From an uncultured virus (IMG/VR IMGVR_UViG_2820362221_000001) (taxonomy: Duplodnaviria; Heunggongvirae; Uroviricota; Caudoviricetes): a stretch of DNA of 64,000 nt. Below the pieces are notes generated by a model, which made no database searches, was not told the origin of the DNA, and saw nothing but the letters and a program-made list of their open reading frames with translations. The translations under genes and the position numbers were made by a program. The DNA lies in IMG/VR virus record IMGVR_UViG_2820362221_000001, positions 1 to 64,000 of that record, one strand, 5' to 3'. Positions within the stretch are counted from its first letter, which is position 1. Every line of letters begins with the position of its first letter. Shown one piece after another: positions 12,301 to 50,738 of the stretch.

Positions 12301-15300
12301 GCAGCCGCTAAAGATGCTGCTCCCTATTGTTTTTACTGTATTCGGCAATTGTACGATTGTCAACGATCTACAATTAGTGAACGCATTGTTGCCAATCGTT
12401 TCCAATCCGTCGTTAAACCCGATATATGACAAGTTCGTACAGCCAGAAAAAACATTGCTTCCCATTATTTCTAACGTACTCGGCAAGACGACGCTTGTCA
12501 GAGTTGTTTTGTTTTGGAATGCGTTGTTGTCGATTGATTGTACTATATATCCGTTGATTTCCTTCGGTATTATTATAACCGTGTCGCTCCCTGTGTACCC
12601 CGTAATCGCACAATATGTCCCATTGATGATACGGGTTGTAAATGATGAAGTCAGCGTTACCGTTCCATCAACGACCAATTCTACCACAACATCGGGAAGA
12701 ACATTTCCGTTGGAAGAAGCGACGCAATTTATTGTATCAATGTTGATTTTGTAAAGCGGGTGATGGAATCTAACTTGATAAGCGTAGCCAACCCGCGCAT
12801 TTGTACATACCCATTCACCAGAAGAGTTTGTGTAATATGTTCCGAGTATTTTTCCACTTAATGTATCATACAATGACACAGAAGCTCCACTAACCCCATT
12901 ATTATTGGTATCTACAACTTTTCCTGATACTGTGACACCTTCATAAACCAATGATTCTGTGGAAAATGGAATGCTGTTTGTATTCGCGTATGTTTCAGCA
13001 TATGTATCTGAAATACCATGTATCGTAAGCCTTGAGCAATTTAGGAACACATTGTTGCCGATAGTTGCGGCATTTCGGTCAATCCATACTTTCTCCAACC
13101 CCGTGCAATTGGCAAAGGCGTTGTTGCCGATACTGTCGAGCGTGCTGGGCAGAATCACCGTTTGGATGTTTGTACTTCCACTAAATGTGTACATTGGTAT
13201 AGCTGTCACGCCCTCTGGCACGACAATATTTGTCAATTTCGTACAACCGTAGAACAATCGCGACGCATAACCGATTGAGCTGCTAACATATGTGTTGGCT
13301 ACGCTCGTTAAGCTACGAGGGTAATTGATGCTCGTCAGGTTTGAACAGCCGTCGAACACGTAATATCCCATCGTCGTCACGCTGTCTGGCAACATCAGAC
13401 TCACCAACCCCGTACAACCGCTGAATGCGTAGTTACCCATCGTCGTCAATATATTCGGCAGGCTTACTGTCGTCAGTCCCGTACACCCACTGAATGCGCT
13501 ATCGCTTAGTGCCATTAGCGTATTCGGCAAACTCACCTTAGTCATGCCCGTACAGCCGCTGAACGCGCTGTTTCCCACCGATGTTAATCCCTCGTTCAAG
13601 GTCACTTCGCGCAGGCTCGTACAGCCGTTGAATGCACTATTACCTATCGTTTTCAAATTGTCCACGAAATTTATATTACCCAATCCCGTGCAATTGGCGA
13701 AGGCGTTGTTGCCTATACTTTCGAGAGTGTTTGGCAAAACCACCGTTTGCAGGCTTGTACTGCCACTGAATGCGTATGCTGGTATCGCCGTCACTCCCTC
13801 TGGTACGACGATACTTGTCAATTTCGGACAGCCGTAGAATAACCGCGACACGTAGCCGATCGAACTACTCACGTATGTGTTAGTGACGCTCGTCAGACTG
13901 CGAGGATAATTAATGCTCGTCAGGTTTGAACAGCCGTCGAACACGTAATATCCCATCGTCGTCACGCTGTCAGGTAACGTCAGACTCACCAATTCCATGC
14001 AACCACTGAATGCGTAATTGCCTATAGTTGTTATCATACTCGGCAGGCTTACTGTCGTCAATCTTATGCAGCCACTGAATGTATTGTCGCTTATTGTCAT
14101 CAGCGTATTCGGCAAATTCATCATCGTCATTCCAGTACAGCCATTGAAAGCACTATTACCCAACGATGTAAGTCCCTCGTTCAAAGTCACTTCACGCAAA
14201 CTGGTACAGCCGTTGAATGCACTGTTGCCTATCGTCCTCAGACTGTCCACGAAATTCACGTTACTCAGCCCCGTGCAATTGGCGAAGGCGTTGTTGCCGA
14301 TACTGTCGAGCGTGCTGGGCAGAATCACCGCCTGAAGGTTTGCGCTACCACTGAACGTGTAAGCCGGTATCGCCGTCACTCCCTCTGGTACGATGATACT
14401 TGTCAATTTCGGACAGCCGTAGAATAACCGAGATACATAGCCGATTGAACTGCTCACATATGTATTGGCTACACTCGTCAGGTTACGAGGGTAATTGACA
14501 TTCGTCAGGTTCGAGCAGCCATCGAACACATAATATCCCATTGTTGTCACGCTATCGGGTAGTGTCAGGCTTACCAGTTCTGTACACCCGCTGAATGCGT
14601 AACTATCTATTGTTGTAAGTGTATTCGGCAGGCTTACCGTTGTTAACCCTGTGCAGCCGCTAAATATATTGCTTCCTATTGTTTTTACTGTATTCGATAA
14701 TTGTACCATCGTCAACGACCTACAATTAGTGAACGCATTGTTGCCAATCGTTTCAAGTCCGTCGTTGAATCCGATATATGACAAGTTTGTACAACCGGAA
14801 AATACATTGCTTCCTATTGTTTCTAATGTATTTGGTAAGACTACGCTTGTCAGGGTTGTTTTATTTTGGAATGCGTTGTTGTCGATTGTCTGCACTATAT
14901 AACCGTTGATCGCGTTTGGTATCACAATCACTATGTCGCTCCCCGTGTAACCAGTTATAGCACAGTATGTCCCATTAATGATACGGGTTGTGAATGATGA
15001 TGGCGATGTTACCGCTCCTCCAGCGATTAGTTCTGCTAAAATATCCGGCAATATATTACCATCAGAAGAGGCGACGCAACTTATTGTATCAATGTTAATT
15101 TTGTAAAGCGGGTGATGGAATCTAACTTGATAAGCGTAGCCAACCCGCGCATTCAGGCAAGCCCAAGTACCAGTAGAATCGGTATAATATGTACCGAGTA
15201 TCTTTCCATTCAATATATCGTAAAGAGATACTGATACGCCGCTGATTTCGTTGTTATTAGTGTCTATCACTTTCCCTGATATTGTGACACCCTCATATAC

Positions 15301-17442
15301 TAACGGCTCTGTGGAAAACGGAATACTATTTATATTTGCATATGTTTCAACGTATGTATCTGAAATACCATGTATCGTAAGCTGTGAACAATTTAGGAAC
15401 ACATTGTTGCCGATAGTTGCGGCATTTCGGTCAATCCATACTTTTTCCAACCCCGTGCAGTTGGCAAAAGCGTTATTGCCGATGGTAACGAGGGTACTCG
15501 GTAGAATCACCGTTTGCAGATTTGTACTTCCACTGAACGTGTACGCTGGTATCGCCGTCACGTCTTCTGATACCGTGATACTCGTCAGCTTCGTACAGCC
15601 GTAAAACAGCCGCGACGCATAACCGACTGAGCTGCTCACGTATGTATTGGCTACATTCGTCAGGCTACGGGGATAGTTGATGCTCGTAAGGTTCGAGCAG
15701 CCGTCAAACACGTAATATCCCATCGTCGTCACGCTGTCAGGTAACGTCAGGCTTACCACCCCCGTACAACCGCTAAACGCATAATTGCCTATTGTCAGCA
15801 GGACGTTTGGCAAACTCACTATCGTCAGTCCTGTGCATCCGCTGAATGTGTTGTCGCTTATCGTTGTCAGCGTATTTGGTAGGCTCACCTTAGTCATGCC
15901 AGTGCAGCCATTGAATGCACCGTTACCGACCGATGCAAGCCCTTCGTTCAAAGTCACTTCACGCAGGCTCGTACAACCATTGAACACATTACTTCCTATC
16001 GTCCTCAGACTGTCCACGAAATTCACGTTACTCAACCCCGTGCAATTGGCGAAAGCGTTGTTGCCGATGGTAGAAATGGTACTGGAGAGAACCACCGTTT
16101 GCAAGTTTGTACTACCACTGAATGTGTACGCCGGTATCGTTGTCACTTCTTCTGGCACGACTATGTTTGTTAGTTTCGTACAACCGTAGAACAATCGCGA
16201 CACGTAGCCGATCGAACTACTCACGTATGTGTTGGCGACGCTCGTTAGGCTACGAGGATAATTAATGCTCGTAAGGTTCGAGCAACCGTCGAACACGTAA
16301 TATCCCATCGTCGTCACGCTGTCAGGTAACGTCAGGCTCACCAGACTCGTACAACCACTGAATGCGTAGTTGCCCACCGTAGTCAACATACTCGGCAGGC
16401 TCACTGTTGTCAACCCTGTGCAACCATTAAATGTGCTGTCGCTTACTGTCATCAGTGTACTCGGTAGGCTCACCTTAGTCATGCCAGTACAGCCATTGAA
16501 CGCGCTGTTACCGACCGATGTAAGCCCTTCGTTTAAGGTCACCTCACGCAAACTGGTACAGCCGTTGAATGCACTGTTGCCTATCGTCCTCAGACTGTCC
16601 ACGAAATTCACGTTACTCAGCCCCGTGCAATTAGCGAAAGCGTTGTTGCCGATGGAATTGAGGGTGCTGGGTAGAACTATTATTTGCAAGTTCGTACTAC
16701 CGCTGAATGTGTACGCCGGTATCGCCGTCACATCTTCTGGCACGACGATGTTCGTCAGATTCGTGCAGCCGTAAAACAGCCGCGACACATATCCAATCGA
16801 ACTACTTACATATGTATTGGCAACGCTCGCCAAGTTGCGAGGGTAATTAATACTCGTCAGGTTTGAGCAACTATCGAACACGTAATATCCCATCATTGTC
16901 ACGCTGTCAGGCAATGTCAAACTCACCAATCCTGTACAACCACTGAATGCGTAACTCTCTATCGTTGTAAGTGTGGTTGAAAAAACCATATTTTCTAAAT
17001 TCGTGCAACCGGAAAATGCATTGCTTCCTATCGTTTTTATTGTGTTCGACATTTGTACCGTTTCCAACGCCCTACAATCAGCGAACGCATTGCTGCCGAT
17101 GCTCACCAATCCGTCGTTGAACCCTATGTATGACAGATTCGAACAACCAGAAAACACGTTGCTACCCATCGTTTCAAGCGTATTCGGCAAAACCACGCTT
17201 GTCAGAGTGGTTTTGCTTTGGAAAGCTCCATTGTCAATTGTCTGCACTATGTACCCATTGACTTCGCTTGGAATCACGATGGCTGTGTCGCTCCCAGTAT
17301 AACCTGTCACTGCACAGTATGTTCCGTTTAATATACGGATTGTAAAATCGGAAGTATCTGCAGCCATTACTATTAATCCAACTGGTAAATAAGTAATTAA
17401 CATCGCCAAAATCAACAATAAACTTAACAATTTCTTTTTCAT
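3328..17442 (-). CDS. Giant (4704 aa) secreted BspA/LRR_5 leucine-rich-repeat protein with Ig-like domains and C-terminal SLH domains
   Basis: Signal peptide MKKKLLSLLL; dozens of 'LPxTLxxIGxxAFxGCxxL' repeats; carboxypeptidase-regulatory-like beta domains; CxxC/His repeats; X2-like and four Big_3-like domains; InlB-B-like repeats; three SLH motifs (e.g. TRAEIAMIM). Confidence 0.92.
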   Translation of the reverse strand: MKKKLLSLLLILAMLITYLPVGLIVMAADTSDFTIRILNGTYCAVTGYTGSDTAIVIPSEVNGYIVQTIDNGAFQSKTTLTSVVLPNTLETMGSNVFSGCSNLSYIGFNDGLVSIGSNAFADCRALETVQMSNTIKTIGSNAFSGCTNLENMVFSTTLTTIESYAFSGCTGLVSLTLPDSVTMMGYYVFDSCSNLTSINYPRNLASVANTYVSSSIGYVSRLFYGCTNLTNIVVPEDVTAIPAYTFSGSTNLQIIVLPSTLNSIGNNAFANCTGLSNVNFVDSLRTIGNSAFNGCTSLREVTLNEGLTSVGNSAFNGCTGMTKVSLPSTLMTVSDSTFNGCTGLTTVSLPSMLTTVGNYAFSGCTSLVSLTLPDSVTTMGYYVFDGCSNLTSINYPRSLTSVANTYVSSSIGYVSRLFYGCTKLTNIVVPEEVTTIPAYTFSGSTNLQTVVLSSTISTIGNNAFANCTGLSNVNFVDSLRTIGSNVFNGCTSLREVTLNEGLASVGNGAFNGCTGMTKVSLPNTLTTISDNTFSGCTGLTIVSLPNVLLTIGNYAFSGCTGVVSLTLPDSVTTMGYYVFDGCSNLTSINYPRSLTNVANTYVSSSVGYASRLFYGCTKLTSITVSEDVTAIPAYTFSGSTNLQTVILPSTLVTIGNNAFANCTGLEKVWIDRNAATIGNNVFLNCSQLTIHGISDTYVETYANINSIPFSTEPLVYEGVTISGKVIDTNNNEISGVSVSLYDILNGKILGTYYTDSTGTWACLNARVGYAYQVRFHHPLYKINIDTISCVASSDGNILPDILAELIAGGAVTSPSSFTTRIINGTYCAITGYTGSDIVIVIPNAINGYIVQTIDNNAFQNKTTLTSVVLPNTLETIGSNVFSGCTNLSYIGFNDGLETIGNNAFTNCRSLTMVQLSNTVKTIGSNIFSGCTGLTTVSLPNTLTTIDSYAFSGCTELVSLTLPDSVTTMGYYVFDGCSNLTNVNYPRNLTSVANTYVSSSIGYVSRLFYGCPKLTSIIVPEGVTAIPAYTFSGSANLQAVILPSTLDSIGNNAFANCTGLSNVNFVDSLRTIGNSAFNGCTSLREVTLNEGLTSLGNSAFNGCTGMTMMNLPNTLMTISDNTFSGCIRLTTVSLPSMITTIGNYAFSGCMELVSLTLPDSVTTMGYYVFDGCSNLTSINYPRSLTSVTNTYVSSSIGYVSRLFYGCPKLTSIVVPEGVTAIPAYAFSGSTSLQTVVLPNTLESIGNNAFANCTGLGNINFVDNLKTIGNSAFNGCTSLREVTLNEGLTSVGNSAFSGCTGMTKVSLPNTLMALSDSAFSGCTGLTTVSLPNILTTMGNYAFSGCTGLVSLMLPDSVTTMGYYVFDGCSNLTSINYPRSLTSVANTYVSSSIGYASRLFYGCTKLTNIVVPEGVTAIPMYTFSGSTNIQTVILPSTLDSIGNNAFANCTGLEKVWIDRNAATIGNNVFLNCSRLTIHGISDTYAETYANTNSIPFSTESLVYEGVTVSGKVVDTNNNGVSGASVSLYDTLSGKILGTYYTNSSGEWVCTNARVGYAYQVRFHHPLYKINIDTINCVASSNGNVLPDVVVELVVDGTVTLTSSFTTRIINGTYCAITGYTGSDTVIIIPKEINGYIVQSIDNNAFQNKTTLTSVVLPSTLEIMGSNVFSGCTNLSYIGFNDGLETIGNNAFTNCRSLTIVQLPNTVKTIGSSIFSGCTGLTTVSLPNTLTTIESYAFSGCTGLVSLTLPDSVTTMGYYVFDGCSNLTSINYPRSLTSVANTYVSSSIGYVSRLFYGCTKLTSITIPEGVTTTPAYTFSGSTNLQTIVLPSTLATIGNNAFNGCTSLRELFLNEGLTSVGNNVFNGCTEMTTVSLPSTLTTLNDSMFNGCISLREVIMNEGLTTIGNYAFSGCTGVVSLTLPDSVTTMGYYVFDGCSNLTSINYPRSLTSVANTYVSSSIGYVSRLFYGCTNLTSITVPEDVTAIPAYTFSGNTSLQTVVLPNTLESIGNNAFANCTGLSNINFVNSLRTIGNSTFNGCTSLSEVTLNEGLTIVGNSAFSGCTGMTTVSLPNTLTTINDSTFNGCIRLAAVNLPNALSTVNNYAFSGCTGLVSLTLPDSVTTMGYYVFDGCSNLTSINYPRSLTNVANTYVSSSIGYVSRLFYGCTKLTSITVPEGVTAIPAYTFSGSTNLQTVVLPSTLAIIGNNAFANCTGLMEINLVEGLKTISQSTFMGCSSLSVLEFPESMESIGNSAYSGCSGLRLIIFNEGLKTIGSNAFDGCAGLTSIVLNDGLTTLSSYSFASCINLTSILIPNSVTSIAANSFNNCPKLKIYCYSGSAAHYAAENNGYPYFLLDAHDHEFFTTIETSPTCTRGGSAINTCSICGYNYIEVLEPLGHTPGDWIIVKEATCIEDGLKKNYCIIDNVELESEIIPATGHTFGEWSTEKEATVLANGLKSRECEICGEKETENLPQIFIDISQTNEYGLANFTVVNATTLEPISGASIFISTPNDGECTLSTDSNGKISQVLPVGNLTISAYANGYLVRELKITIKPGIQEIPRIGLSEKPMVEGKLTVREMTYDEIIAAGIDPNAPGNQHVYRYQVEITFRAEIDVLSIIAFFNGTGDFLGGVGPDGGGGRGSDGVLWYNGGYSPGGTGGGGFGWRLSDGTDVTIFPVSERFYLIIYGEVRWLKEMFDAELLVINNSLTDTIEDCVAELTLPDGLSLADMVYGAQSAVQTIDYIEEGGSKSVHWYIRGDKEGTYSVTASLQGTMMPFDERFSYEYVAQDPIKVYAGSAMHMTFYIPDSAFEGEDYTIRIELENVSHKSLYGVSHTIYALQGQVTHYSDGTVVTEEHVISGTSASAKEFKPGDKIIIEMTTNIMFHSEMIQHELNKLIGMVDNIETLMTSLKMLNAAANALNSLGGWIDSLSSIVDSGGLSWELIEGIWGLRDILDYMEFGKGEETKFNIYDSIRFAIANIPIRFVVTNVAVTTLSGSTTEIPYTIKLIPVGARYFGVDNIGQYIYDLVIASFGEISGDVLGVPFAKDITGYQDAVKRIKVVEDNIARLNVKGTGESTSRAWIEPAATRDSRMSSFASTSSTDFILSTNNETATYIDGVLEFKGSGIIEITPLNSVGGILYIENSEGYIHTYIIDVVEPHVCHSDNWTVIVPPTENTVGYKAILCDVCGDLLKLEEMIPCGNHIFGEWVTEFQPTNNTVGIKTRTCENCGLFEYEIIDSITNLPTGEIVIGTNYWNTFWNTFWNTVTFGLIYKDTKSVSLTADSDSTDEITIQYYLSDSELTLDDLNEFTTEWINYKNSFNINPNSKIIIYVKITDEFGNVTYINSTGIVLYTDSEAVTTEINFVKGFGLDKIAEVLLNGNTIQKIMNGEVTLEDGTDYIVSDGTIKFNAEYLESLETGEYTLTVYYNPLGVDYVDADENDIPATTEITLKVLPEPIILDNIIIFSLPDKMEYIVGDNFDLAGIIITAVYSDGSEKEITDFNTSIDDGDILDTIGIKTITVSYTEDDIIKTVDFTITVNPSPIISEGINITTLPEKMEYIVGEPLELTGIVVIIAYSDGSSEEVADYTTDPVNGTILDIIGTQTIIVSYTENDVTETTSFTVVVNALPIVLESISVTTLPDKTVYTVDEELDLSGMIVTAVYSDENTKIITDFSTEPTNGTILDIVDIIVVTVSYIENEIMKTDSFTITVNAIPVILESISVTTPPIKTVYTVGEALDLTGMVVTASYSDSSYNEVTDFTSNPINGAVLNIIGTQTIIISYTEDNITETDNFNVVVNAEPDVTPPTGEISIETNYWNSFWNTVTFGLICKNTQTVTITASDKNGNPATIQYYLSDEELTLAQIQALDAEWMDYSSPFDINPKNKYIIYVKLSDSSDNVAYINSEGIVLYEDSVLITTKINYIKGSEDNISATINLNGNTIANIKNGEYSLIELTDYVVSENEIIFSASYLDTLVAGTYTLTVSYNPLGIAYPETPSDGSNAPAISSITLTVNTVPDIQKYEFNVSAGIGGNISGTPSGTYEENTEMNVTATANIGYHFKDWTVSGVAISDIIASSVSFNMPAGSVTMTANFELDSAIVTNVIVSPQDIEVQQGGTHQFGATVEGENNPEQTVIWSVSDNESDETTISDIGLLTVGLDETANTLIVTATSTIDTNKFGMATVIITSDIPTPFYGISLDVSAYTFIDNTAKTVTITNTGNQPTGELIITLNGEDSNAFIISKTSIDDIAIGEFDTFDMVPKTELTEGTYTVTVTLSGDNGISASFDVNFTVNPVIPTIFTLTINSSDGGTVSGMPSGSYAEGTPVSITATENNGYTFAGWTAIGITLSENTARSIEFTMPDNNVMLTANFTKINYIITANPATGTYTNTQSVTLSVNAANVGIYYTVNGTEPTINNILYTGAIAVNQSVTIKAVAVIDGEIVSDVATFVYTINTSSGSGDSYVPPYTPPTDGDTTGETGSGIDSDNTSDDDDSGDLEEISDKDTPLSNAKFGDEPSAEGYVNPYTDVKEDDWFAEAARIMNQLGIMIGSGNTNTFKPHDVTNRYMLATILYRLNGEPEVSEDAIIPFSDVIAGEWYSDAIIWAYETGLMNGFPDGTFKGSELLTREQIVTVFYRYAEIMGFDVSARADLSKYEDAGKISDWALEAMQWAVAVGLIVGRTETTTVPQGEATRAEIAMIMKRFLFEIFGDDEDNDV
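10400..17350 (-). repeat. Intragenic repeats: three 2352-bp modules, mostly with 585-bp subrepeats
   Basis: Equivalent N-cap sequence at 17332, 14980 and 12628; 'taatatcccat' at 16883, 16298 and 15713. Confidence 0.9.
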
Positions 17443-35115: not shown

Positions 35116-36072
35116 TTATTTTGAATCTATTTTACCAATACATTTAACTTCAATTAAAAATTCATCATCTGATATGTCGCTTTTCGCTAATTCTAAAATC
35201 CATTTATTTTCCGGGAATTCAGCCCATAGGTTCATTTTATCAGAAAATGCACTAATTCCCATACCCCATGGAATATCATGTTCTTGAATGTCGTTTTTTT
35301 TATCGTCTAATACATTAATTGAATCAGATATTTCTTGTTTATTTGGAAATGTATCGCCATCTTTTAAAATAGAATGTTCTGTACATTTAAATATACTTTG
35401 TTTTTCAAATAATAATAACGCGTGACGCCAATTTAACAATTCATATTCGGCGTTATATTCTAAGTCAGGAATAAATAAATATGGATTTTTTGTCAAACAA
35501 TGTCCATATTCATAGTAATTATCGTTTTCTTTTTCTAATAATTCATTGAATATTTTCGTAAATTCTTTCTTTGATTTATCTATATACTCTTTGAAAATTT
35601 TTATTAAAGTTTTAAAGTTTGAGATGAATCTATCAATGGCGATTAAACATGAAAACCCCAATAATATCCCTTCCGCTTCAGATTTAATCAAATCAACATC
35701 TTTAATAGCATTACTTATAACCAAATACATATATACAGCAAAACAAAAACATTTTACTATATACGGTATCATAAGATAAAATTTATCGCCTTTCATATCA
35801 TCGTAAAAGAATTCTCTGATTATTTTTATTTTTAATAATAATGGGAGTATTAATTCTGGAAATACAATAAGAAGAATTGAGATTTCAAGTATTACATAAA
35901 AAATATATTTATCTGGATTTGATATTACTTGGGTTTGTAACTTCAATAAAGGAAGTGTCGAAATCATACAATAACACAATACTACAATATAAAAAATTAT
36001 GTAATTTCGCACTCTGACTTTTTTTGTTTTATTAGGCTCTAAATCGTTTTTTTTATTCATATAATTCACCAT
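35116..36072 (-). CDS. Low-GC membrane protein (about 4 TM plus soluble C-terminus), moron
   Basis: 318-aa ORF with hydrophobic segments; antisense to phage genes; AT-rich. Confidence 0.65.
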   Translation of the reverse strand: MVNYMNKKNDLEPNKTKKVRVRNYIIFYIVVLCYCMISTLPLLKLQTQVISNPDKYIFYVILEISILLIVFPELILPLLLKIKIIREFFYDDMKGDKFYLMIPYIVKCFCFAVYMYLVISNAIKDVDLIKSEAEGILLGFSCLIAIDRFISNFKTLIKIFKEYIDKSKKEFTKIFNELLEKENDNYYEYGHCLTKNPYLFIPDLEYNAEYELLNWRHALLLFEKQSIFKCTEHSILKDGDTFPNKQEISDSINVLDDKKNDIQEHDIPWGMGISAFSDKMNLWAEFPENKWILELAKSDISDDEFLIEVKCIGKIDSK

Positions 36073-36366
36073 TTTTTATATATCTGTAAATCAAGTATCA
36101 TTTATATAATACATTCAATATATGCATAAATATAACATAAAAAATATTTTCAGTCAAGATATTTCAAATAATTCAACGAATTAGCCGACTATAAATTATT
36201 AATGTTGCCATTGTCTAATATATACGGCTCTATACTGTTATTTTCCTTGATATTTGGTACATTTATTATGCGTAAATGCCTTGCTATTATTATGTTTTTA
36301 TGGCAATATGTGATTAGCAGAAGGCACAAAGCCTACGCAAAATCAAACAAAAACGGAGGGAAAAAC

Positions 36367-37200
36367 ATGAAAATCAATTACAATGTAACTGGCAGCGAAC
36401 GCAAATCATTAGTGGCTGCAATTACCCAAGAATTAAACACCCCAAGTAAATACCTCGGCGCACCGACATTCGCTTACGAAGTCGGCGGTTACCATATCGA
36501 CAAAAACGGTACGCTCACGGGAGAGGAGGACAACCCCGGACTGGTCGCAGACCTTTGCGGGCTACACAGTTTCACAGCAGTCAGCGAAGAATATGATGAA
36601 CCGACCGAAACGACGGAAACCCCTGCTTTTGAGAATTTACATATGACCGAACGTGAGGAATTGGGGCTTGGGCAGGAACGCCGCGACCCCATCGGAGAGA
36701 ACGGAATGCAGGCGGGCGATGTTCCCGACCCCGACGCCAATGACAGCAACAAGCTGACGATTGAAATTCCATTGGACGGTTTCAACGATAAATCGATAGA
36801 AAATCTCGGAGAAATCGTAGCCAGTAAAAATCGGCTCATAAAAAAAGCACTCGGCACAAATAGTCTGCGGATTGATACGACCGACGATAAATTGCTATTC
36901 CCATGGTTTACCTTAACGGGTACAGATGGCGAAGTAGAGGCTTATTCCGCTTTTGTCAGCCTGCTCTGCAAAACGGCGAAAGAGAAAAAGCACATCACGG
37001 CAAAAGAAAAAGATGTCGGGGACAATCCAAAATACGCAATGCGGTGCTTTCTGCTGAGTTTGGGCTTTATCGGCGACGAATACAAAACGGCACGGAAAAT
37101 CCTGCTTTCCAACCTTGAGGGAAATTCAAGCTGGGGCAGTAACGAAGCCTACACCGCAATGCAGGAACAGCGTCGTAAGACGGCAACTGAATCTGAATAA
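36367..37200 (+). CDS. Phage 'virulence-related' hypothetical protein
   Basis: 'YLGAPTFAYEVG','NPKYAMRCFLLSLGFIGDEYK.ARKILL.NLEGNS'; RBS ggagg. Confidence 0.7.
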   Translation: MKINYNVTGSERKSLVAAITQELNTPSKYLGAPTFAYEVGGYHIDKNGTLTGEEDNPGLVADLCGLHSFTAVSEEYDEPTETTETPAFENLHMTEREELGLGQERRDPIGENGMQAGDVPDPDANDSNKLTIEIPLDGFNDKSIENLGEIVASKNRLIKKALGTNSLRIDTTDDKLLFPWFTLTGTDGEVEAYSAFVSLLCKTAKEKKHITAKEKDVGDNPKYAMRCFLLSLGFIGDEYKTARKILLSNLEGNSSWGSNEAYTAMQEQRRKTATESE

Positions 37201-37342
37201 TCGGCAATTTATGTACACACATAGTTATCAATATATATCGCATAATTGACTTGCTATTCCCGTTTTTTTATGGCAATATGGTACTAACGAAAAAGGGAGA
37301 AAACCCCTGTAAAACCAAGAAAAAACGAGGAGAAAAAGAAAA

Positions 37343-38245
37343 ATGTTCAACAGTAGATTTGGCATAGAAGTAGAGTTCACAGGGATAACGAGGACACAGG
37401 CGGCGAGGGTTGTTGCCGATTACCTTAACGGAACGGTCAGCGCGACACACGATTATTACGATACGCAAAAGGTCGCCGCTCCGGACGGCAGGGTTTGGAA
37501 AATCATGTCCGACGCAAGCGTCAAATCCCAAAGGAAAGACCACGGCAGGACAATCGACGCAGGCAGCGAATACAAGGTTGAACTGGTCAGCCCGATACTT
37601 ACCTACCGCGATGACATAGACACCCTGCAGGAACTTATCCGCAGGCTGCGGAAAGCGGGCGGTTTCGCCAACAGCAGTTCGGGGATTCACATACACCTCG
37701 ACGGCGCGAACCACACTCCGAAAAGCATCAAAAACTTCATAAACATCATCGCAAGCAAAAACGACCTTTTTTACAAGGCACTCCAAATTGAGCCGGACAG
37801 AATGCGGTTTTGCAAAAAGATGGACAGTTATTTGGTAGAGCGAATGAACCAACGCAGACCGCAAACCCTGTCGCAGATAGAAAACATTTGGTACGAGGGA
37901 TACAACGGAAGCCGCAATCAGCATTACCACGACAGCCGATACCATTTTCTGAACCTGCACAGCTTTTTCGGCGGCAACCATACGGTCGAACTTCGAGGCT
38001 TCAACAGCGAACTCCACGCAGGAAAGATACGGTCGTACATAGTCCTCGCATTGGCGCTCAACCAACAAGCGTTGACACAAAAGAGTGCGTCAGCGCGAAA
38101 ACCGCAGACCGACAATGAAAAATTCGCCATGAGGACGTACCTGAACCGAGTCGGATTCATCGGAGAGGAGTTCAAAAACTGCCGCGAACACCTCTGCAAG
38201 CACCTTTCAGGGTCGGCGGCATGGCGTTACCGGACAACCGTTTAA
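37343..38245 (+). CDS. Amidoligase (COOH-NH2 ligase type 2)
   Basis: 'FGIEVEF','ELVSPIL','GIHIHL','RYHFLN','TVELRGFN'. Confidence 0.88.
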   Translation: MFNSRFGIEVEFTGITRTQAARVVADYLNGTVSATHDYYDTQKVAAPDGRVWKIMSDASVKSQRKDHGRTIDAGSEYKVELVSPILTYRDDIDTLQELIRRLRKAGGFANSSSGIHIHLDGANHTPKSIKNFINIIASKNDLFYKALQIEPDRMRFCKKMDSYLVERMNQRRPQTLSQIENIWYEGYNGSRNQHYHDSRYHFLNLHSFFGGNHTVELRGFNSELHAGKIRSYIVLALALNQQALTQKSASARKPQTDNEKFAMRTYLNRVGFIGEEFKNCREHLCKHLSGSAAWRYRTTV

Positions 38246-38283
38246 CGGTAATACAATTATATAACATAAGGAGAAGAAAAATC

Positions 38284-38724
38284 ATGAACGGCGAAAACAA
38301 AATTTATGTGGCATACGGCAGCAACCTCAATTTAGAGCAAATGAAATTCCGCTGCCCATACGCAACGGTAATCGGCGGCGGTACGCTGCCGGATTATCAG
38401 CTTTTATTCAGAGGAGGCGACGGCGGTTCTGTGGCAACCGTAGAGCCGAAAAAAGACGGCAGCGTACCCGTGCTGCTTTGGGAGATAACCCCGCGAGACG
38501 AACAATCGCTTGACCGCTACGAGGGTTATCCGCATCTTTACCGCAAAGAAACGGTCGAGGTTCAATACGGCGAAAAATTAGTCGAAGCTATGGTGTATAT
38601 CATGAACGGGAACAGACCGCTTGGTACGCCAAGCGAATATTATTTGAACGCCATTTTGGAAGGATACGAGTCTGCGGATTTCGACAAGGAAGTATTGGAA
38701 CAGGCTGTACGGAATTCAAAATAA
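38284..38724 (+). CDS. Gamma-glutamylcyclotransferase (AIG2-like)
   Basis: 'YVAYGSNL','LDRYEGYP.LY'. Confidence 0.9.
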   Translation: MNGENKIYVAYGSNLNLEQMKFRCPYATVIGGGTLPDYQLLFRGGDGGSVATVEPKKDGSVPVLLWEITPRDEQSLDRYEGYPHLYRKETVEVQYGEKLVEAMVYIMNGNRPLGTPSEYYLNAILEGYESADFDKEVLEQAVRNSK

Positions 38725-38906: not shown

Positions 38907-39314
38907 ATGAAAAGAACAGAGGAAATCAAAAACCAATTAGCGTACATCGAAACCCGCAAAGTCCGCGCCCTTAAACATTACGAGGAGACAATCGCTAAAA
39001 TAGACCAAGAGGCGGCAGACCTTCAAGCCGAACTCGAAAACATCAAAATCGCCGAAAAAATCGCCCGCAATACCCCCAAAACGATAGGCGCGTTTACACA
39101 GACAAACGAAAAAATCACAATTACTTTCGGCGGCTGGGACGGTCGGAGCTACAATGGCGAAGGCGTTAACTTGAGGATATGGACAAACAAACATTACCCG
39201 GATAAAAGATTTGTAAAATCCAGTCACTACGGCGGAGTATTCCATGAAGTATTAGACGATAAACACGAAAAAAGCGGTTTAACCGAAGTGACATATTTTG
39301 CGGACTGCAAATAA
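38907..39314 (+). CDS. Hypothetical protein (coiled-coil N-terminus)
   Basis: Own promoter copy and RBS ggagg. Confidence 0.7.
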   Translation: MKRTEEIKNQLAYIETRKVRALKHYEETIAKIDQEAADLQAELENIKIAEKIARNTPKTIGAFTQTNEKITITFGGWDGRSYNGEGVNLRIWTNKHYPDKRFVKSSHYGGVFHEVLDDKHEKSGLTEVTYFADCK

Positions 39315-39426
39315 TAACCGAATATTACATCGAAAATACCGAGAACTGCCCGAAAGGGTTGTATCTCGTAGATATAGATTTCATAAGACTTTTTATAGGT
39401 CTTTTTTTATTTTATGGGAGTTTCCA

Positions 39427-41037
39427 ATGAGCAGTTATATTTATACTCCGACAAAATTAATGCTGCCGACAAGCCGTTACGATGCGCGGCGAGCCGACTT
39501 TGCGGTAAATTTCATTCAGATGCTCAGACACACCACGGGTGAATGGTATGGGAAACCGTTCCGGCTCATGCCTTGGCAAGAGCAGATTGTGCGCGATATT
39601 TTCGGCATAGTCGGCGGGGACGGTTACCGTCAGTTCCGCACGGCTTATGTAGAAGTCGGCAAAAAAAACGGCAAGTCCGAACTGGCTGCCGCCATCGCCC
39701 TATATCTTTTGTTCGCGGACGGCGAAGCGGGAGCGGAGGTGTACTCCTGCGCCGCCGACATCAATCAGGCGAGCATCGTTTTCAATACCGCCAAGGCAAT
39801 GGTTGAGCAATGCGGGGATTTGGCAAGGCTGTCAAAACTCGTGCCATCTACCAAGCGGATCATATTCCCGCATACAAATAGTTTTTATAGAGTTTTATCT
39901 TCCGAAACAAAATCAAAACAAGGATTCAATGTGTCGGGACTCATATTTGATGAATTATTCGCGCAGCAAACCCGCGAGTTGTTTGACACCATGACGAAAT
40001 ACACGGGCGATGCCAGACGGCAGCCGCTATATTTTTTAATCACAACAGCCGGTCGTGATAGAACGTCCATTTGTTATGAAATACACCAAAAGGCAAAAGC
40101 GGTACTGGACGGCTCGAAAGTTGACTCCTCGTTCTACCCCGCCGTGTTCGGCATCGAAGAAGGCGACGACTGGAACGACGAATCCGTATGGCGGCGGGTG
40201 AACCCGTCCATCGACGTGACGATACCTTTTGAAACCGTGCAAGCCGCCTATGAACAGGCGAAACAAAATCCTGCCGAAGAGATGCACTTCCGTCAGTTTC
40301 GTTTAAACGAATGGTGTAATGCTGATGTCCGGTGGATACCTATGGAGAAATGGGACGCTTGCGGCGAGGATTTCGACCCCGATGATTTCAAAGGGCGCGA
40401 CTGTTACGCCGGACTGGATTTATCTTCGACGGGCGACCTTACGGCTCTGATGTTAGTGTTCCCCCCGAACGGCGATGATGATAAATACACCGTCCTGCCG
40501 TTTTTTTGGCTGCCAGAAAATGCTGTCGACCTGCGTACACGGCGCGACCATGTGCCGTATGCCGTTTGGCGCAAGACTGGCGTAATCAACACAACCGAGG
40601 GCGATGTGGTTGATTACGATTATATCGTTTCTTTTATAGAGGAACTCGTTGCGGATTTCCGAATCCGCGAAATTGCCTACGACCGCTGGGGCGCGGAGAA
40701 GATACGCCGCGACCTTGAGGAACTTGGAGCGGAGCGTGGATTTACCGTATTCCCGTTCGGTCAGGGGTTTGCGAGCATGGCTGCCCCGACCCGCGACCTC
40801 ATGCAGCTTGTTCAGGAAGGCAAGCTGCGTCACGGCAAACACCCTGTCCTCGACTGGAATATGGGTAACGTAGTCGCCGAGACCGACGCTCATCTTAATG
40901 TGAAAATGTCAAAGAAAAAATCCACGGAGAAAATCGACGGCGCGGTCGCTTTCGTCATGGGACTTGCCCGCGCGATGATGCAGAGCGGCAGTACGACGGT
41001 GTCTGTTTATGACGAGAGAGGGTTGCTATTTGTATAA
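39427..41037 (+). CDS. terL: Terminase large subunit
   Basis: 'GKKNGKSEL','FDEL','ITTAG','GLDLS','KIDGAVA'. Confidence 0.95.
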   Translation: MSSYIYTPTKLMLPTSRYDARRADFAVNFIQMLRHTTGEWYGKPFRLMPWQEQIVRDIFGIVGGDGYRQFRTAYVEVGKKNGKSELAAAIALYLLFADGEAGAEVYSCAADINQASIVFNTAKAMVEQCGDLARLSKLVPSTKRIIFPHTNSFYRVLSSETKSKQGFNVSGLIFDELFAQQTRELFDTMTKYTGDARRQPLYFLITTAGRDRTSICYEIHQKAKAVLDGSKVDSSFYPAVFGIEEGDDWNDESVWRRVNPSIDVTIPFETVQAAYEQAKQNPAEEMHFRQFRLNEWCNADVRWIPMEKWDACGEDFDPDDFKGRDCYAGLDLSSTGDLTALMLVFPPNGDDDKYTVLPFFWLPENAVDLRTRRDHVPYAVWRKTGVINTTEGDVVDYDYIVSFIEELVADFRIREIAYDRWGAEKIRRDLEELGAERGFTVFPFGQGFASMAAPTRDLMQLVQEGKLRHGKHPVLDWNMGNVVAETDAHLNVKMSKKKSTEKIDGAVAFVMGLARAMMQSGSTTVSVYDERGLLFV

Positions 41038-41105
41038 ATGTTCATAATTTTATGCTATGATTATTACAGCCTAATTAACGATATAAATATATTGGAGGGA
41101 AAGAA

Positions 41106-42284
41106 ATGTTATATCTTTTCAATTCAGGTTATTGGCAAAACCATATCAATAATTTGTTGAATACTCTTCATTTTCCCAAGGGAGTAATCAATGTTTATCA
41201 ATACAAAACGGATGATCCGAGTTATTCCATATCACAAAATGCAATTAACGCTCGTGTCGGAACAAAAGTGCTTATTAATTATATAGATCGACTCAGTTCT
41301 CCTGAATTTTGTTATTACCCAATGCGTTACGGGAAATTAGTTAAATGTGAGAAAAACAATACAAATATATATTTCCATATCGAACTATGCGATTATTGTA
41401 ATGCACAGGATATAAACGATTTTAATAATAATTTTTCTTCATCCTTTGATAATACTCTTTTCAAAAATAAAGATAACTCTGTAATAATGCCTGTTGAAAA
41501 CCAACAAACAGAAGGTTGTTTAGCATTTTGCGAAAATACTTATGATTTGAAGATAATGAATTTATTATCTTCAGACCATAACTCATGGAAAGAAACAGTA
41601 GAGCAGTTGTCTAACTGTGAATTGTTCAAAAATAATTTCCCCATTTTTACAAAAGTAAAGATACTAAATGCCAAGGATAAGGAAGTTTCGATTAAAAGAA
41701 AAAACTTGAAAAACAATTTTATTTTAAGAGTTGGTAATACCTATAATTTTAAAACTACTTATTATTTACCATATATTAATCAAAATATTAAATTTAAAGC
41801 TTACATCAATACTGCGAGTAATCCCGATGTCTTTCTTAAGAAAGAAGATTCAAAATTATTTGGTGCAGCAACAGGTGACGAAAACTTTTCTTGTAACATT
41901 AGCAAAGAAGTTAAAAATTGTATTGTAGATATTAAATATGAAGCCAAGATCGGCGACGCAAAAGATGATAAAAATACGCAACTTCTAATTGCAAACAAAC
42001 CAATTCCGATTATTACGAAATCAAAATGTTCAAAATGGTGGAAAGTAATATTATTTGCAGTATTATTTGCAATATCTTCATTTATTTTAAGTGTGCAGGT
42101 TGATAATATAATTGAAGAAGTAAAAATTTTAAATACTGCTGGCGATCCAGTACCAATGCAATTAAATATATTTTATCAAATAGCACGTATACTTGATTCT
42201 TTTAAATATATTTATCAAGTTATTTTTAGTATAGTGTCGTCATTATCTTTGTTCTTTTTGGTAAAAATATATGGAAAAGATTAA
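41106..42284 (+). CDS. Low-GC hypothetical protein with two C-terminal TM helices (moron gene 1)
   Basis: RBS ggagg; hydrophobic 'WWKVILFAVLFAISSFIL' and 'VIFSIVSSLSLFFLV'. Confidence 0.7.
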   Translation: MLYLFNSGYWQNHINNLLNTLHFPKGVINVYQYKTDDPSYSISQNAINARVGTKVLINYIDRLSSPEFCYYPMRYGKLVKCEKNNTNIYFHIELCDYCNAQDINDFNNNFSSSFDNTLFKNKDNSVIMPVENQQTEGCLAFCENTYDLKIMNLLSSDHNSWKETVEQLSNCELFKNNFPIFTKVKILNAKDKEVSIKRKNLKNNFILRVGNTYNFKTTYYLPYINQNIKFKAYINTASNPDVFLKKEDSKLFGAATGDENFSCNISKEVKNCIVDIKYEAKIGDAKDDKNTQLLIANKPIPIITKSKCSKWWKVILFAVLFAISSFILSVQVDNIIEEVKILNTAGDPVPMQLNIFYQIARILDSFKYIYQVIFSIVSSLSLFFLVKIYGKD

Positions 42285-42975
42285 CGATGGAATTGTGTCC
42301 ATTAATAAAACGGAAGCTGAAGTTTTCTATAAAAAGTATGAGCATTTAGGGAATTGTGGATTAGGTGTTTGGCATTATGGATATTATGTGGATGGTGTAT
42401 TACTATCTGTTGTATCTTTCGGAACAGCAAATTTCAATCCCAAGCGTTCTTTCATTGGGAAAATAGCCGCCGCTCATAATGTGAAAATAATACAACTTAC
42501 GCGCGGGGGAACTTTATACGATGCTCCAAGCAATACTCCAAGCAAAGTAATAGCACTCGTGTTAAAGGCTATAATGAAGCGATTTGGAAATACAATTATT
42601 ATTGCTTATTCAGACACGAAATTTTATGAAGTCGGAACAATATATCAAGCATCAAATTTCTTATATCTTGGATGCACCAATCCTAAAAATCAATCGAATT
42701 ATATAGTGAATGGAAAACAATACACGGGGTGGACAATAAGAAAAAAATACGGAACAAGAAATATGTCTACCCTTGTTAATGAATTGGAATTAAATATAAA
42801 AAAAATAACTTTGTCAGAAAAACATCAATATGTATATATTAATACTTCACCGCTTATTAAAAAAAGTATAAAAAATTGTCTTAATTATAAAATTAAAGCA
42901 TATCCCAAAAGGGATGTGTTACAAATAGGTAGTATGTTAGATTACCACAAAAGTATTGGGCTGCGTAAAAATTGA
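42271..42975 (+). CDS. Mom-like GNAT-fold DNA adenine modification protein (moron gene 2)
   Basis: 'QLTRG...APSNTPSKVI...IIIAYSD....VGTIYQASNFLYLG' matches Mom-family motifs. Confidence 0.7.
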   Translation: MEKINDGIVSINKTEAEVFYKKYEHLGNCGLGVWHYGYYVDGVLLSVVSFGTANFNPKRSFIGKIAAAHNVKIIQLTRGGTLYDAPSNTPSKVIALVLKAIMKRFGNTIIIAYSDTKFYEVGTIYQASNFLYLGCTNPKNQSNYIVNGKQYTGWTIRKKYGTRNMSTLVNELELNIKKITLSEKHQYVYINTSPLIKKSIKNCLNYKIKAYPKRDVLQIGSMLDYHKSIGLRKN

Positions 42976-43014
42976 ATATTATAAAAGCACTTTTTCAAAA
43001 TTAAAATATTATTA

Positions 43015-43045
43015 AAAGCATCGTTTTCGACGGTGCTTTTTTCAT
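43015..43045 (+). terminator. Terminator, repeated at 56222
   Basis: aaagcatcgttttcgacggtgcttttttcat. Confidence 0.8.
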
Positions 43046-43071: not shown

Positions 43072-44310
43072 ATGAGCATATTTTCAGGGCTTTTCCGTTC
43101 CCGCGACAAACCCAAAAACAAAGTCGGCGGCGGATTTTCATTCTTCTTCGGCGGCACATCGTCCGGAAAGGCGGTCAACGAGCGCACAGCCATGCAGACC
43201 ACGGCGGTGTACGCCTGTGTCCGAATACTCGCTGAATCCATCGCGGGACTGCCACTTCACATATATAAATACAAGAGCGACGGCGGCAACGAAAAAGCTG
43301 TCAGTCACCCGCTATATCATACGCTCCATGACGAGCCGAATCCGGAGATGACTTCGTTTGTGTTCAGGGAAACACTGATGAGCCATCTTCTTTTGTGGGG
43401 TAACGCATATGCACAAATCATCCGCGACGGGCGAGGTAAAGTATTATCGCTTTTTCCCCTGCTGCCGAATATGGTGGAAGTTGACCGCTCCGCGAACGGG
43501 GAGATATTTTATACATACAAGCGCGGAGCAGACGAAAACGAAAAAGTCACATTGCGCCGCGACGAAGTGCTACACATACCCGGACTCGGTTTCGACGGAC
43601 TTGTCGGCTATTCACCGATAGCCATGGCAAAAAACGCCGTCGGTATGGCTATTGCCACCGAGGAGTACGGCGCGTCATTTTTCGCCAACGGCGCGAATCC
43701 GGGCGGCGTACTGGAACATCCAAATGTAGTCAAAGACATACAGCGCGTTAAAGATTCGTGGAATACCGCATACCAAGGCAGTAAAAACGCTCACCGCGTC
43801 GCAATCCTTGAAGAGGGCATGAAATTCCATCAAATCGGTATTCCACCCGAACAGGCGCAGTTCTTGGAAACGCGGAAGTTTCAAATCAATGAAATCGCCC
43901 GTATCTTTCGAGTTCCACCGCACATGGTCGGCGACCTCGAAAAATCGAGTTTCAGCAACATAGAACAGCAGTCGCTGGAATTTGTTAAATATACGCTCGA
44001 CCCGTGGGTAGTGCGGTGGGAACAGGCTCTACAGCAATCACTTATGCTACCCTCGGAAAAAGGCGCGTATTTTGTGCGGTTCAACCTTGACGGACTGCTG
44101 CGCGGCGATTACGCCAGCCGAATGACTGGTTATTCCACCGCCCGTCAGAACGGCTGGATGAGCGCGAACGACATAAGGGAGTTAGAGAACATGAACCGTA
44201 TTCCGGCAGAGGAAGGCGGCGACTTATATCTCGTAAACGGCAATATGCTGCCGCTTAAGGACGCGGGGGCTTTTGCGAATAAAAATCAGAAGGAGGAAGA
44301 TACAATATGA
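43072..44310 (+). CDS. Phage portal protein (HK97 family)
   Basis: 'AVYACVRILAESIAGLP','LLLWGNAY','EIARIFRVPPHM'. Confidence 0.95.
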   Translation: MSIFSGLFRSRDKPKNKVGGGFSFFFGGTSSGKAVNERTAMQTTAVYACVRILAESIAGLPLHIYKYKSDGGNEKAVSHPLYHTLHDEPNPEMTSFVFRETLMSHLLLWGNAYAQIIRDGRGKVLSLFPLLPNMVEVDRSANGEIFYTYKRGADENEKVTLRRDEVLHIPGLGFDGLVGYSPIAMAKNAVGMAIATEEYGASFFANGANPGGVLEHPNVVKDIQRVKDSWNTAYQGSKNAHRVAILEEGMKFHQIGIPPEQAQFLETRKFQINEIARIFRVPPHMVGDLEKSSFSNIEQQSLEFVKYTLDPWVVRWEQALQQSLMLPSEKGAYFVRFNLDGLLRGDYASRMTGYSTARQNGWMSANDIRELENMNRIPAEEGGDLYLVNGNMLPLKDAGAFANKNQKEEDTI

Positions 44311-49484: not shown

Positions 49485-50738
49485 TTAAATCATCCATGCA
49501 GGAACAAACCAATTCTTTCTGTCCACCGGCAGTAAATCATTAGCCATGCAAACCACAGTACCATTGCCTATTTCTATTTTGTACTGCTCAAGTTCGCCGA
49601 AGCGTTCCGGTTCGGTCACAGGGTTAAGAGCTTTAAAATTCTTTACCGATTCGGTGCCGGGAGACGCCGCTTTTTTTATTTCGATTGGATATAATGTGCC
49701 ACTCTCGTAAATCAAAATGTCGATTTCACGTTTTTCCTTGTCGCGGTAATAGTACAGCGGCGGTTCTTTTCCCGCGTTGATGTAACTCTTGTATATCTCG
49801 GAGAACACCCAACTTTCAAAGAAGGCGCCGGACATAGCGCCGCGTTCCAGTATCTCGGCGTTTCCCCACTTCAAAAGATAAGCGCAAAGCCCCGTGTCCA
49901 AAAAGTGCATCAACGGCATTTTCGTGGCGCGTTTCAACACGTTATTGTGATAAGGTCGTACTAAGGCGACAAGCCCCGACGATACCAAAATCGACAGCCA
50001 GCTTTTGGCTGTGGGAGGACTGATTCCCGCGTCCTTGGCTATTTCCTCATACACGATAGGTTTTGCGGTACGCGCCGCGACAATTATCATGAAGTTATGA
50101 AATGCCGTCTCATCGGCGACTTGGGATAAGTCTTTTATGTCCCTTTGCAGATAAGTGTTCATATAGGAACGGTAAAAATCGTCTAAATCGGGAATATCCT
50201 CAGTATAAAGCGCGGGGAAAGCGCCGCGGAATATTCTTTCATATATCTCGTTTATTCCCATCTTTTTCACTGTGTTTAATCTTGACATCAGGCGTTCGGG
50301 GGATGTTGTAAACGGTTCGGACTGTATGCCGGCGATTTCGCTTGCCGAAAGCCCAAGCAAGTTGACTATACCAACCCGTCCCGCAAGGGATTCGCTGACG
50401 TTCTTCATCATGTGGAACGCCTGCGAACCGGTCAGCCAGAAATCACCTTTTTTGCCTGAAGTGTCAACGCTCATCTTGACATAAGGCAGAATGCCGGGGG
50501 CGTATTGGATTTCGTCGATTAATACCGGCGGCGGGAAACGCTGCATAAACAAAGCAGGGTCGCTCCTCGCCATATGGCGGATATCCGGGTCGTCAAGCGT
50601 TACATACTTACGCGAGTTATCCGCGAGCCGCTTAAGCAACGTGGTTTTCCCGACTTGGCGCGGTCCCGTGACTAACAGCGCGGGAAATGTCTTTGATATT
50701 TTCAGGATTGAATTTTCAATAGCTCGGTTGATATACAT
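49485..50738 (-). CDS. AAA+ ATPase (AAA_14) with C-terminal DUF4143, moron
   Basis: 'GPRQVGKTT','IDEIQ','LTGS','ESLAGR','DTGL','EIDIL...PIEIK'. Confidence 0.9.
   Translation of the reverse strand: MYINRAIENSILKISKTFPALLVTGPRQVGKTTLLKRLADNSRKYVTLDDPDIRHMARSDPALFMQRFPPPVLIDEIQYAPGILPYVKMSVDTSGKKGDFWLTGSQAFHMMKNVSESLAGRVGIVNLLGLSASEIAGIQSEPFTTSPERLMSRLNTVKKMGINEIYERIFRGAFPALYTEDIPDLDDFYRSYMNTYLQRDIKDLSQVADETAFHNFMIIVAARTAKPIVYEEIAKDAGISPPTAKSWLSILVSSGLVALVRPYHNNVLKRATKMPLMHFLDTGLCAYLLKWGNAEILERGAMSGAFFESWVFSEIYKSYINAGKEPPLYYYRDKEKREIDILIYESGTLYPIEIKKAASPGTESVKNFKALNPVTEPERFGELEQYKIEIGNGTVVCMANDLLPVDRKNWFVPAWMI

Follow-up and report, generated by a model that had tools for sequence, protein, structure and literature searches.

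A 64,000-nucleotide stretch of an uncultured virus of the Caudoviricetes (IMG/VR record IMGVR_UViG_2820362221_000001, positions 1 to 64,000; hereafter, the window) carries a two-gene cassette between the genes for the terminase large subunit (terL) and the portal protein of a siphovirus-like prophage, whose surrounding region encodes a helicase, a polymerase, a primase, methylases, and head and tail proteins. An earlier, model-generated reading of the letters (the original prediction) had proposed an AT-rich gene pair with a 14-nt overlap at this position, and the open reading frame (ORF) coordinates and base composition bear this out. Gene 1 (41106-42284, + strand), predicted to encode a sensor-effector of 392 amino acids (aa), and gene 2 (42271-42975, +), predicted to encode a modifying enzyme, or writer, of 234 aa, have GC contents of 0.276 and 0.316 (28–32%; 0.22 and 0.25 at third codon positions, GC3), compared to approximately 51% in the two flanking genes that lie outside the cassette, terL on the left (39298-41037, +; Pfam TerL_ATPase and TerL_nuclease; GC 0.506) and the portal gene on the right (43072-44310, +; Pfam Phage_portal, E = 1.5e-132; GC 0.516). 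All motifs quoted for the two proteins were found in their translations.

A Shine-Dalgarno-like GGAGG (41094-41098, +) is located 7 nt upstream of the gene 1 ATG, and a possible extended −10 promoter element, TG-n-TATGAT (41053-41061, +), spotted by eye, lacks a good −35 and is absent from a consensus scan. Downstream of gene 2, an intrinsic-terminator-like hairpin of 12 bp, with an A-tract before and a T-tract after it (43014-43042, +), folds with z = −5.2 (none of 200 shuffles was equally stable), in agreement with the proposal that the cassette has its own terminator, though a strict terminator scan reported the hairpin on the minus strand only. Each gene is single-copy in the genome, and no insertion-site repeats stood out around the cassette. 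Single contigs with zero differences cover the entire cassette in two runs, arguing that it is not an assembly artefact; these runs are possibly the source of this DNA and do not constitute independent support.

Gene 2 is, by profile, a Mom-family GNAT in which one essential residue is not kept. It matches the Pfam Mom family (PF25680) at E = 8e-23 (81.6 bits against a cut-off of 27.1) and PHROG 1384 at E = 3.6e-27, and a family profile built from 46 of 98 relatives matches the structure of Mu Mom (8bv8_A) over positions 34-211 at E = 1.6e-6, so that the GNAT assignment of the original prediction holds at the profile level. According to Silva et al. 2026 (PMC13219725), Mu Mom takes glycine from Gly-tRNA and attaches it to the N6 position of adenine in double-stranded DNA (dsDNA), relies most on R111, S124, D149 and R151, and requires a helix-turn-helix (HTH)-like insertion. 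The enzyme is active on dsDNA only, not on single-stranded DNA (ssDNA). In an alignment read by hand, Mu Mom R111, S124, D149 and Y159 correspond to R78, S91, D115 and Y125 of gene 2, which are kept in 40, 39, 39 and 40, respectively, of the 40 aligned Mom sequences that are paired with a gene 1 relative, and the H58 equivalent is kept in gene 2 as well. The region matching the HTH-like insertion aligns, at the level of sequence, with low identity and no large deletion, and Mom-like enzymes of the paired set are strongly basic (median net charge +17.5). A clade-specific change lies near the active site, with Q75 in 39 of 40 paired rows. Judged on these features, gene 2 probably acts on a nucleic-acid polymer.

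Gene 1 has no Pfam, PHROG, NCBIfam or PADLOC match, nor is any such match common to its 125 aligned relatives. A word-based homologue search retrieved only gene 1 itself, and a full HMMER scan yielded 201 representatives at E ≤ 0.001. Its AlphaFold2 model (predicted local distance difference test, pLDDT, 93; predicted template modelling score, pTM, 0.88) comprises three parts: an N-terminal PUA-like domain of the EVE/YTH type (residues 1-158; 41106-41579, +), an immunoglobulin (Ig)-like beta-sandwich (residues 175-306; 41628-42023, +), and two transmembrane (TM) helices with a short loop and a conserved G-K tail at the end (residues 309-389; 42030-42272, +). When residues 1-158 were folded alone, the top 18 VIA-align rows were all EVE, YTH, ASCH, McrB-N, VcaM4I and DrmA structures, with THYN1 as the best match (Z = 8.4, root-mean-square deviation 3.3, 128 aligned), and Atlas structure rows with EVE clusters reached TM-scores of 0.54–0.56 to this domain. 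None of the 125 family members matched the EVE, YTH or ASCH sequence profiles at E ≤ 0.05, a PDB sequence search with the gene 1 profile returned nothing below E = 0.17, and an Atlas feature search with the PUA-like domain returned no named family. The consistency of the structural matches supports placing the predicted fold in the PUA-like superfamily, with no single family assigned. The suggestion of a PUA/SRA-like fold is thereby upheld in its PUA-like part, the domain being closer to EVE, YTH and ASCH than to SRA, and both the soluble N-terminal region and the two TM helices proposed for gene 1 are present, together with an Ig-like middle domain that had been overlooked.

The middle domain matches Ig-fold domains with Z = 7–8.8, and Foldseek agrees. 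Hydropathy peaks at residues 313-331 and 370-388 mark the two helices; two C-terminal hydrophobic segments occur in 103 of 125 relatives, and a Lys or Arg occurs in the last 8 residues of 124 of 125, a basic tail that would place the reader domain in the cytoplasm. The PUA-like domain is the best conserved part of the protein (0.48 for residues 1-100 compared to 0.24–0.31 elsewhere), with F5, Y13, N16, P24, Y33, D61, P72 and R74 among the conserved positions. Its net charge is neutral to acidic, with a median of −1 across the family and −6 in this gene 1, and thus resembles what would be expected of a small-ligand pocket more than of a DNA-binding surface. This bears on whether the reader could instead recognize the mark while it is still part of a DNA or RNA polymer, such as newly replicating phage DNA, and then trigger membrane damage. 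The best fold matches do bind modified bases in polymers (THYN1 5-methylcytosine DNA, YTH RNA, and likewise VcaM4I and the McrB N-domains), but the domain is not basic, a constitutive writer would also mark self DNA, and a membrane tether would be ill-suited to DNA scanning; we consider polymer reading quite improbable.

A weak search for longer fusions of the reader domain (7999 candidates scored) found 9 proteins, all of gene 1 size and with no Pfam domain. Among the relatives of gene 1, one (P0207) reaches 508 aa and carries approximately 145 additional residues, hydrophobic in character, at its N-terminus, one otherwise full relative contains an in-frame TGA (L178:1457-1459) that could be a stop, an error or recoding, and one is frameshifted by recoding or error (L180); an apparently split Mom elsewhere is due to unresolved bases. 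Such seemingly damaged copies carry no weight here on the question of toxicity.

The two genes co-occur beyond the window, as the original prediction had anticipated. Starting from Mom, we fetched 157 loci (77 genome and 80 viral); a gene 1 relative adjoins Mom in the 19 best of the 77 genome loci, in loci L021 and L079, and in the viral copy from the window itself; none was found in the remaining 135 of 157. Starting from gene 1, a subfamily of 51 sequences led to 34 metagenome loci, 24 of which have a Mom-like neighbor; in 9 more the contig runs out within 106 nt downstream, and L189, with a truncated gene 1, has no Mom within 2.1 kb downstream. In a FastTree phylogeny of 142 Mom rows (151 before removal of duplicates, with rows covering fewer than 150 profile positions excluded), the paired rows, 40 in all, constitute one side of a branch with Shimodaira-Hasegawa (SH)-like support of 98. 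Nineteen of these had been found via gene 1, and all 21 Mom-found rows in the clade are paired too. The labels of the paired clade span eight phyla (Bacillota, Bacteroidota, Acidobacteriota, Planctomycetota, Pseudomonadota, Myxococcota, Ignavibacteriota and Zixiibacteriota). Close to the branch of the window, a by-eye comparison adds circumstantial support, in that 10 of 28 gene 1 clusters include a member whose longest contig has the same length as that of a Mom-like match. The distances of gene 1 and Mom are correlated (Mantel r = 0.30, a value reached in 3 of 2000 permutations), and in 27 of 33 loci the AT content of the cassette exceeds that of its flanks by over 3 points. The cassette is rare and patchy, with no full-length match beyond the seeds in 399 genomes of the window's class and in 400 and 390 genomes of two phyla. 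Gene 1 was not found in plasmids, nor was the gene 1 subfamily pattern found in viral contigs, and no RNA holder was listed.

Of 38 full pairs, 10 have the two genes in the opposite order and form one subclade in both trees; no third conserved gene accompanies the pair among 28 loci clustered. A tightly coupled two-gene unit that occurs in either order might be a toxin-antitoxin or guard pair, in which one protein restrains the other by contact or modification; GNAT-EVE operons have been proposed as toxin-antitoxin systems (PMC7641849), and ParE/RelB-type cargo is found at the same terL-portal junction. The pair, however, comes without a DNA-binding autoregulator, and gene 2 has kept the nucleobase-modifying residues of Mom, making this explanation very improbable in our estimate.

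The same distribution speaks to the proposal that the cassette is a defence or counter-defence module. Its pairing, its Mom homology and the predicted membrane sensor architecture are in line with such a module, but the counter-defence half is weak. In a Mu-like scheme, a late Mom would shield progeny DNA from restriction, with the membrane protein serving in superinfection exclusion or as a passenger; this would be consistent with the location of the window cassette within a late operon, co-directional with terL, with two more phage-like paired loci (L021 and L079), and with the abundance of Mom homologues in phages (210 records). However, the paired clade lies mostly outside viral contigs: among the 80 best viral loci, only two, L079 and the copy in the window itself, belong to it. 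The best phage-record matches listed are only 26–33% identical, every member seen in the clade is paired, and the L079 pair is on the strand opposite to terL and portal. Unlike Mu Mom, the cassette Mom belongs to a separate clade that occurs mostly in bacterial genomes and was always seen beside the membrane reader. We give counter-defence as the primary role a slender chance, marginally below that of the toxin-antitoxin explanation; protection from restriction could be a side effect of the cassette.

Neighboring ORFs of over 130–140 aa were scanned around the paired loci, with PADLOC run on a subset. Defence genes flank approximately 9 of 45 paired loci, many loci being too short to judge, and include SoFic and Lamassu (L002), type I restriction-modification (L003 and L164), a helicase-methylase pair (L005), a Panacea antitoxin (L170), PRTase-CE (L171), REase-ARP (L175), E2 and E1-JAB genes (L179) and DruA (L185). 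Further paired loci are found in prophages or near recombinases (L021, L079, L173 and L187).

The anatomy of the cassette, its homology to Mom, the predicted fold and the conserved pairing are established, and from these we infer each step of the mechanism that follows. We favor the interpretation that the cassette is a moron of the prophage that provides a self-contained, Metis-like system of abortive infection, because a writer, a PUA-like reader and a membrane effector make up its entire content; we put the chance of this at about even. In the accessible text of the Metis preprint (Osterman et al., bioRxiv 10.1101/2025.11.05.686725), Metis senses N6-methyldeoxyadenosine monophosphate (m6dAMP) that is freed when phages degrade Dam-methylated DNA; MisA carries a PUA-like domain, and type II (MisC-MisB) includes a membrane protein. 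By analogy, the lysogen would express the cassette under the control of signals within the cassette, and the Mom-like enzyme would, as suggested by its homology to Mu Mom, transfer an amino acid from a charged tRNA to adenines that lie in a particular motif of the cellular DNA. A lytic phage that degrades the chromosome would then free the marked mononucleotide, as in Metis, which would be bound by the cytoplasmic PUA-like domain of gene 1. Gene 1 would oligomerize, and its two TM helices would damage the membrane, thereby aborting the infection. The combination of a basic enzyme and a neutral reader domain would suit a writer that acts on a polymer and a reader of a small ligand.

The Metis authors predict systems with their own DNA-modifying enzyme and describe a putative type III that combines MisA with a methylase (10.1101/2025.11.05.686725). 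The cassette may share with type II the proposed logic, in which a modified adenine nucleotide acts through a sensor on a membrane effector. In contrast to gene 1, with its PUA-like domain, Ig-like domain and two TM helices, MisC has three TM segments and no annotated domain, and the HAD phosphatase MisB, which is adjacent in type II, has no counterpart among the scanned neighbors of the paired loci. The cassette writer is a Mom GNAT rather than Dam or another methylase, which sets it apart from the putative type III, and gene 1 has Ig-like and TM regions in place of the Calcineurin-like effector of type I, the putative type III and PUA-Cal-HAD. Hence, the cassette may work like Metis yet falls outside types I, II and putative III. 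The terms "Mom" and "GNAT" do not occur in the accessible preprint text, which is distinct from the Science version.

PUA-Cal-HAD (Zhang et al., bioRxiv 10.64898/2026.01.15.699771) responds to the same trigger with a PUA-like domain that mixes with many effectors. It resembles the cassette in its PUA-like sensor, its interchangeable effectors and its link to enzymes making modified adenines, and differs in the effectors themselves, namely Calcineurin-CE, HEPN, DrHyd, TIR, HNH, McrB and MazG. "Mom", "GNAT", "transmembrane" and "2TM" do not occur in the accessible main text, and Figure 1, Figure S1 and Table S1 may hold such an architecture. The (PIN)-GNAT-EVE/ASCH operons (Bell et al. 2020, PMC7641849) likewise couple a GNAT with PUA-like readers in conflict contexts, including some prophages. 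Their GNAT is, however, fused to EVE without a membrane effector (neither "transmembrane" nor "Mom" occurs in the accessible text), whereas the cassette has separate genes, and no ASCH gene was found among the scanned neighbors of Mom-paired loci. In jumbo-phage fusions of Mom with a restriction endonuclease (REase; Iyer et al. 2021, PMC7824862), Mom is also the writer of a two-part conflict system, but there the partner is a nuclease that follows restriction-modification logic, as opposed to the membrane reader of the cassette.

Neither gene matches a model of PADLOC-DB 2.0 (library from 2023), which produced four stray single-member matches at E ≥ 4e-4. This fits the candidate undescribed module of the original prediction, which overlooked a close published model in Metis. 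The literature covered, namely the texts of the closest work without its supplements and figures and without Iyer et al. 2013, holds no description of a Mom enzyme with a PUA-like membrane protein, and the conserved pair appears to be a variant, so far unpublished, of a type of defence that was described only recently.

Several observations weigh against the Metis-like interpretation. Foremost is the missing cleaner, which is the main gap since Metis relies on MisB to limit basal toxicity, although defence persists without MisB (10.1101/2025.11.05.686725); neither a MisB-like HAD nor another cleaner was found beside the pair among the scanned neighbors and by a crude motif scan. In gene 2, the essential R151 of Mu Mom is replaced by K117, in a column that is variable in paired and other Mom-like rows, and the equivalents of Y59 and W181 are not kept, suggesting that the substrate or donor may differ from that of Mu Mom. 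The fold scores of the reader domain are middling (Z of approximately 8, within the tool's range for unclear matches) and tied between families, and Foldseek with the PUA-like domain alone gave no match at E ≤ 0.001. With regard to the pairing, the Mantel correlation is modest, related sequences do not count as independent, the gene 1-side search covered one subfamily only, and 29 of 147 gene 1 representatives are less than 30% identical to any protein with a partner seen. The count of approximately 9 of 45 defence-flanked loci stands without a background control, and housekeeping genes surround many paired loci (L008, L011, L014, L017-L019 and L162). The latter setting might reflect a non-defence role, such as epigenetic or stress signaling at the membrane, but the patchy distribution in the sampled genomes, the AT-richness relative to the flanks and the variation of neighbors between all lineages make such a role the remotest of the explanations considered.

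The absence of a cleaner gene would be accounted for if the Mom-like enzyme were an infection-activated signal synthase similar to Kongming or CBASS, idle until infection and then aminoacylating a free nucleotide or a tRNA-derived product that the PUA-2TM protein reads as a second messenger. The clade-specific changes near the active site (Q75 and the variable position 117) and the neutral reader domain would be compatible with this model, which also has a precedent in the Kongming signal made from free nucleotides (PMC13728456). The restriction of Mu Mom to dsDNA argues against it, as do the alignment of the DNA-binding insertion region without a large deletion and the strongly basic enzyme, and we regard a signal synthase as unlikely.

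If the Metis-like interpretation is true, the cassette would represent the first cellular defence role found for a Mom-type tRNA-dependent DNA aminoacylase, reversing the phage use of Mom, and would define a new membrane effector family of approximately 200 clusters at 50% identity, probably together with a new DNA base or motif. Because such a signal would be private, the system would not be silenced by phage enzymes directed against m6dAMP or Dam. The cassette would also provide a two-gene, easily cloned candidate for the prediction of the Metis paper, a genome-degradation alarm with its own DNA-modifying enzyme.

One distant reader occurs with a different candidate writer, and pairing with Mom therefore does not extend to the most distant readers. 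A weak match from Acidobacteriota is a 394-aa protein whose homology to gene 1 spans 290 columns (hhalign 94.6%, E = 6.5e-8), and its locus (L279:5661-8904, genome G439) places this PUA-Ig-2TM reader between a DruA gene (PF14236) and two ASCH genes. PF14236 was earlier named DUF4338. DUF4338 is described as a GNAT domain in the accessible text of PMC10853773. The DruA-type partner has no detectable similarity to the Mom alignment (E = 0.63). The ASCH proteins could be erasers, because the ASCH family includes the N4-acetylcytidine (ac4C) amidohydrolase YqfB (by the title of structure 9kyf, one of the fold matches). This arrangement was found once only, a weak second match being an unrelated ATPase, and the single locus suggests that the reader architecture may follow base-acylating enzymes in general. 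On this basis, we tentatively entertain a modular class of self-barcoding defence, in which Mom, an anti-restriction enzyme of phages adopted by bacteria, would write a private chromosome barcode from charged tRNA, a new PUA-Ig-2TM pore family would read it once the genome is degraded, and the writer would be swappable, as with the DruA/DUF4338 GNAT and the two possible ASCH erasers of L279; we see this as a possible but not a probable extension.

The terL-portal junction itself was surveyed in 80 viral loci fetched with the portal protein, of which 74 also hold terL and 6 are without terL in reach. The gap is below 200 bp in 47 of the 74 related viral contigs, so the description of terL and portal as normally adjacent applies to these, but not to the other 27, which carry other inserts. 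These inserts identify the junction as a cargo hotspot and the cassette as a moron. In the scanned subset, the cargo includes SoFic, ParE/RelB, a PDC-S01 ATPase, a PD-Lambda-2-like protein, PAPS-reductase-like genes, regulators and unknowns. Unannotated cargo across loci L192-L271 includes a pair of 409 and 346 aa (L269:1459-3685) and single proteins of 342 (L208), 344 (L239) and 253 aa (L235). An AAA_14 and DUF4143 ATPase lies against the grain in the tail module of the window (49485-50738, −), and the same Pfam pair is terL-portal cargo in L246, where it matches PADLOC PDC-S01.

Outside the paired clade, Mom-like genes occur in several further contexts. In Bdellovibrionota (L031-L067), a separate clade of 300–420 aa is present in several copies per genome in some cases, often followed by an ORF of approximately 340 aa (a tyrosine integrase in L031, the one scanned), perhaps as part of a mobile element. 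Mom domains with long unannotated or DUF7487 extensions are found in L020, L022, L023, L025, L028, L030 and L055, with two Mom domains in L025, and other Mom-like genes are located beside ParB (L024, L027 and L068) or C5 methylases (L071 and L075).

Elsewhere in the window, two amidoligase-like genes and a gamma-glutamylcyclotransferase-like gene lie between the methylases and terL (36202-38724). A further AT-rich moron (25% GC; 35116-36072, −) between the methylases and the amidoligase genes encodes a protein of 318 aa with several hydrophobic segments and without a family match, and a 4704-aa ORF (3328-17442, −) is situated to the left of the prophage.

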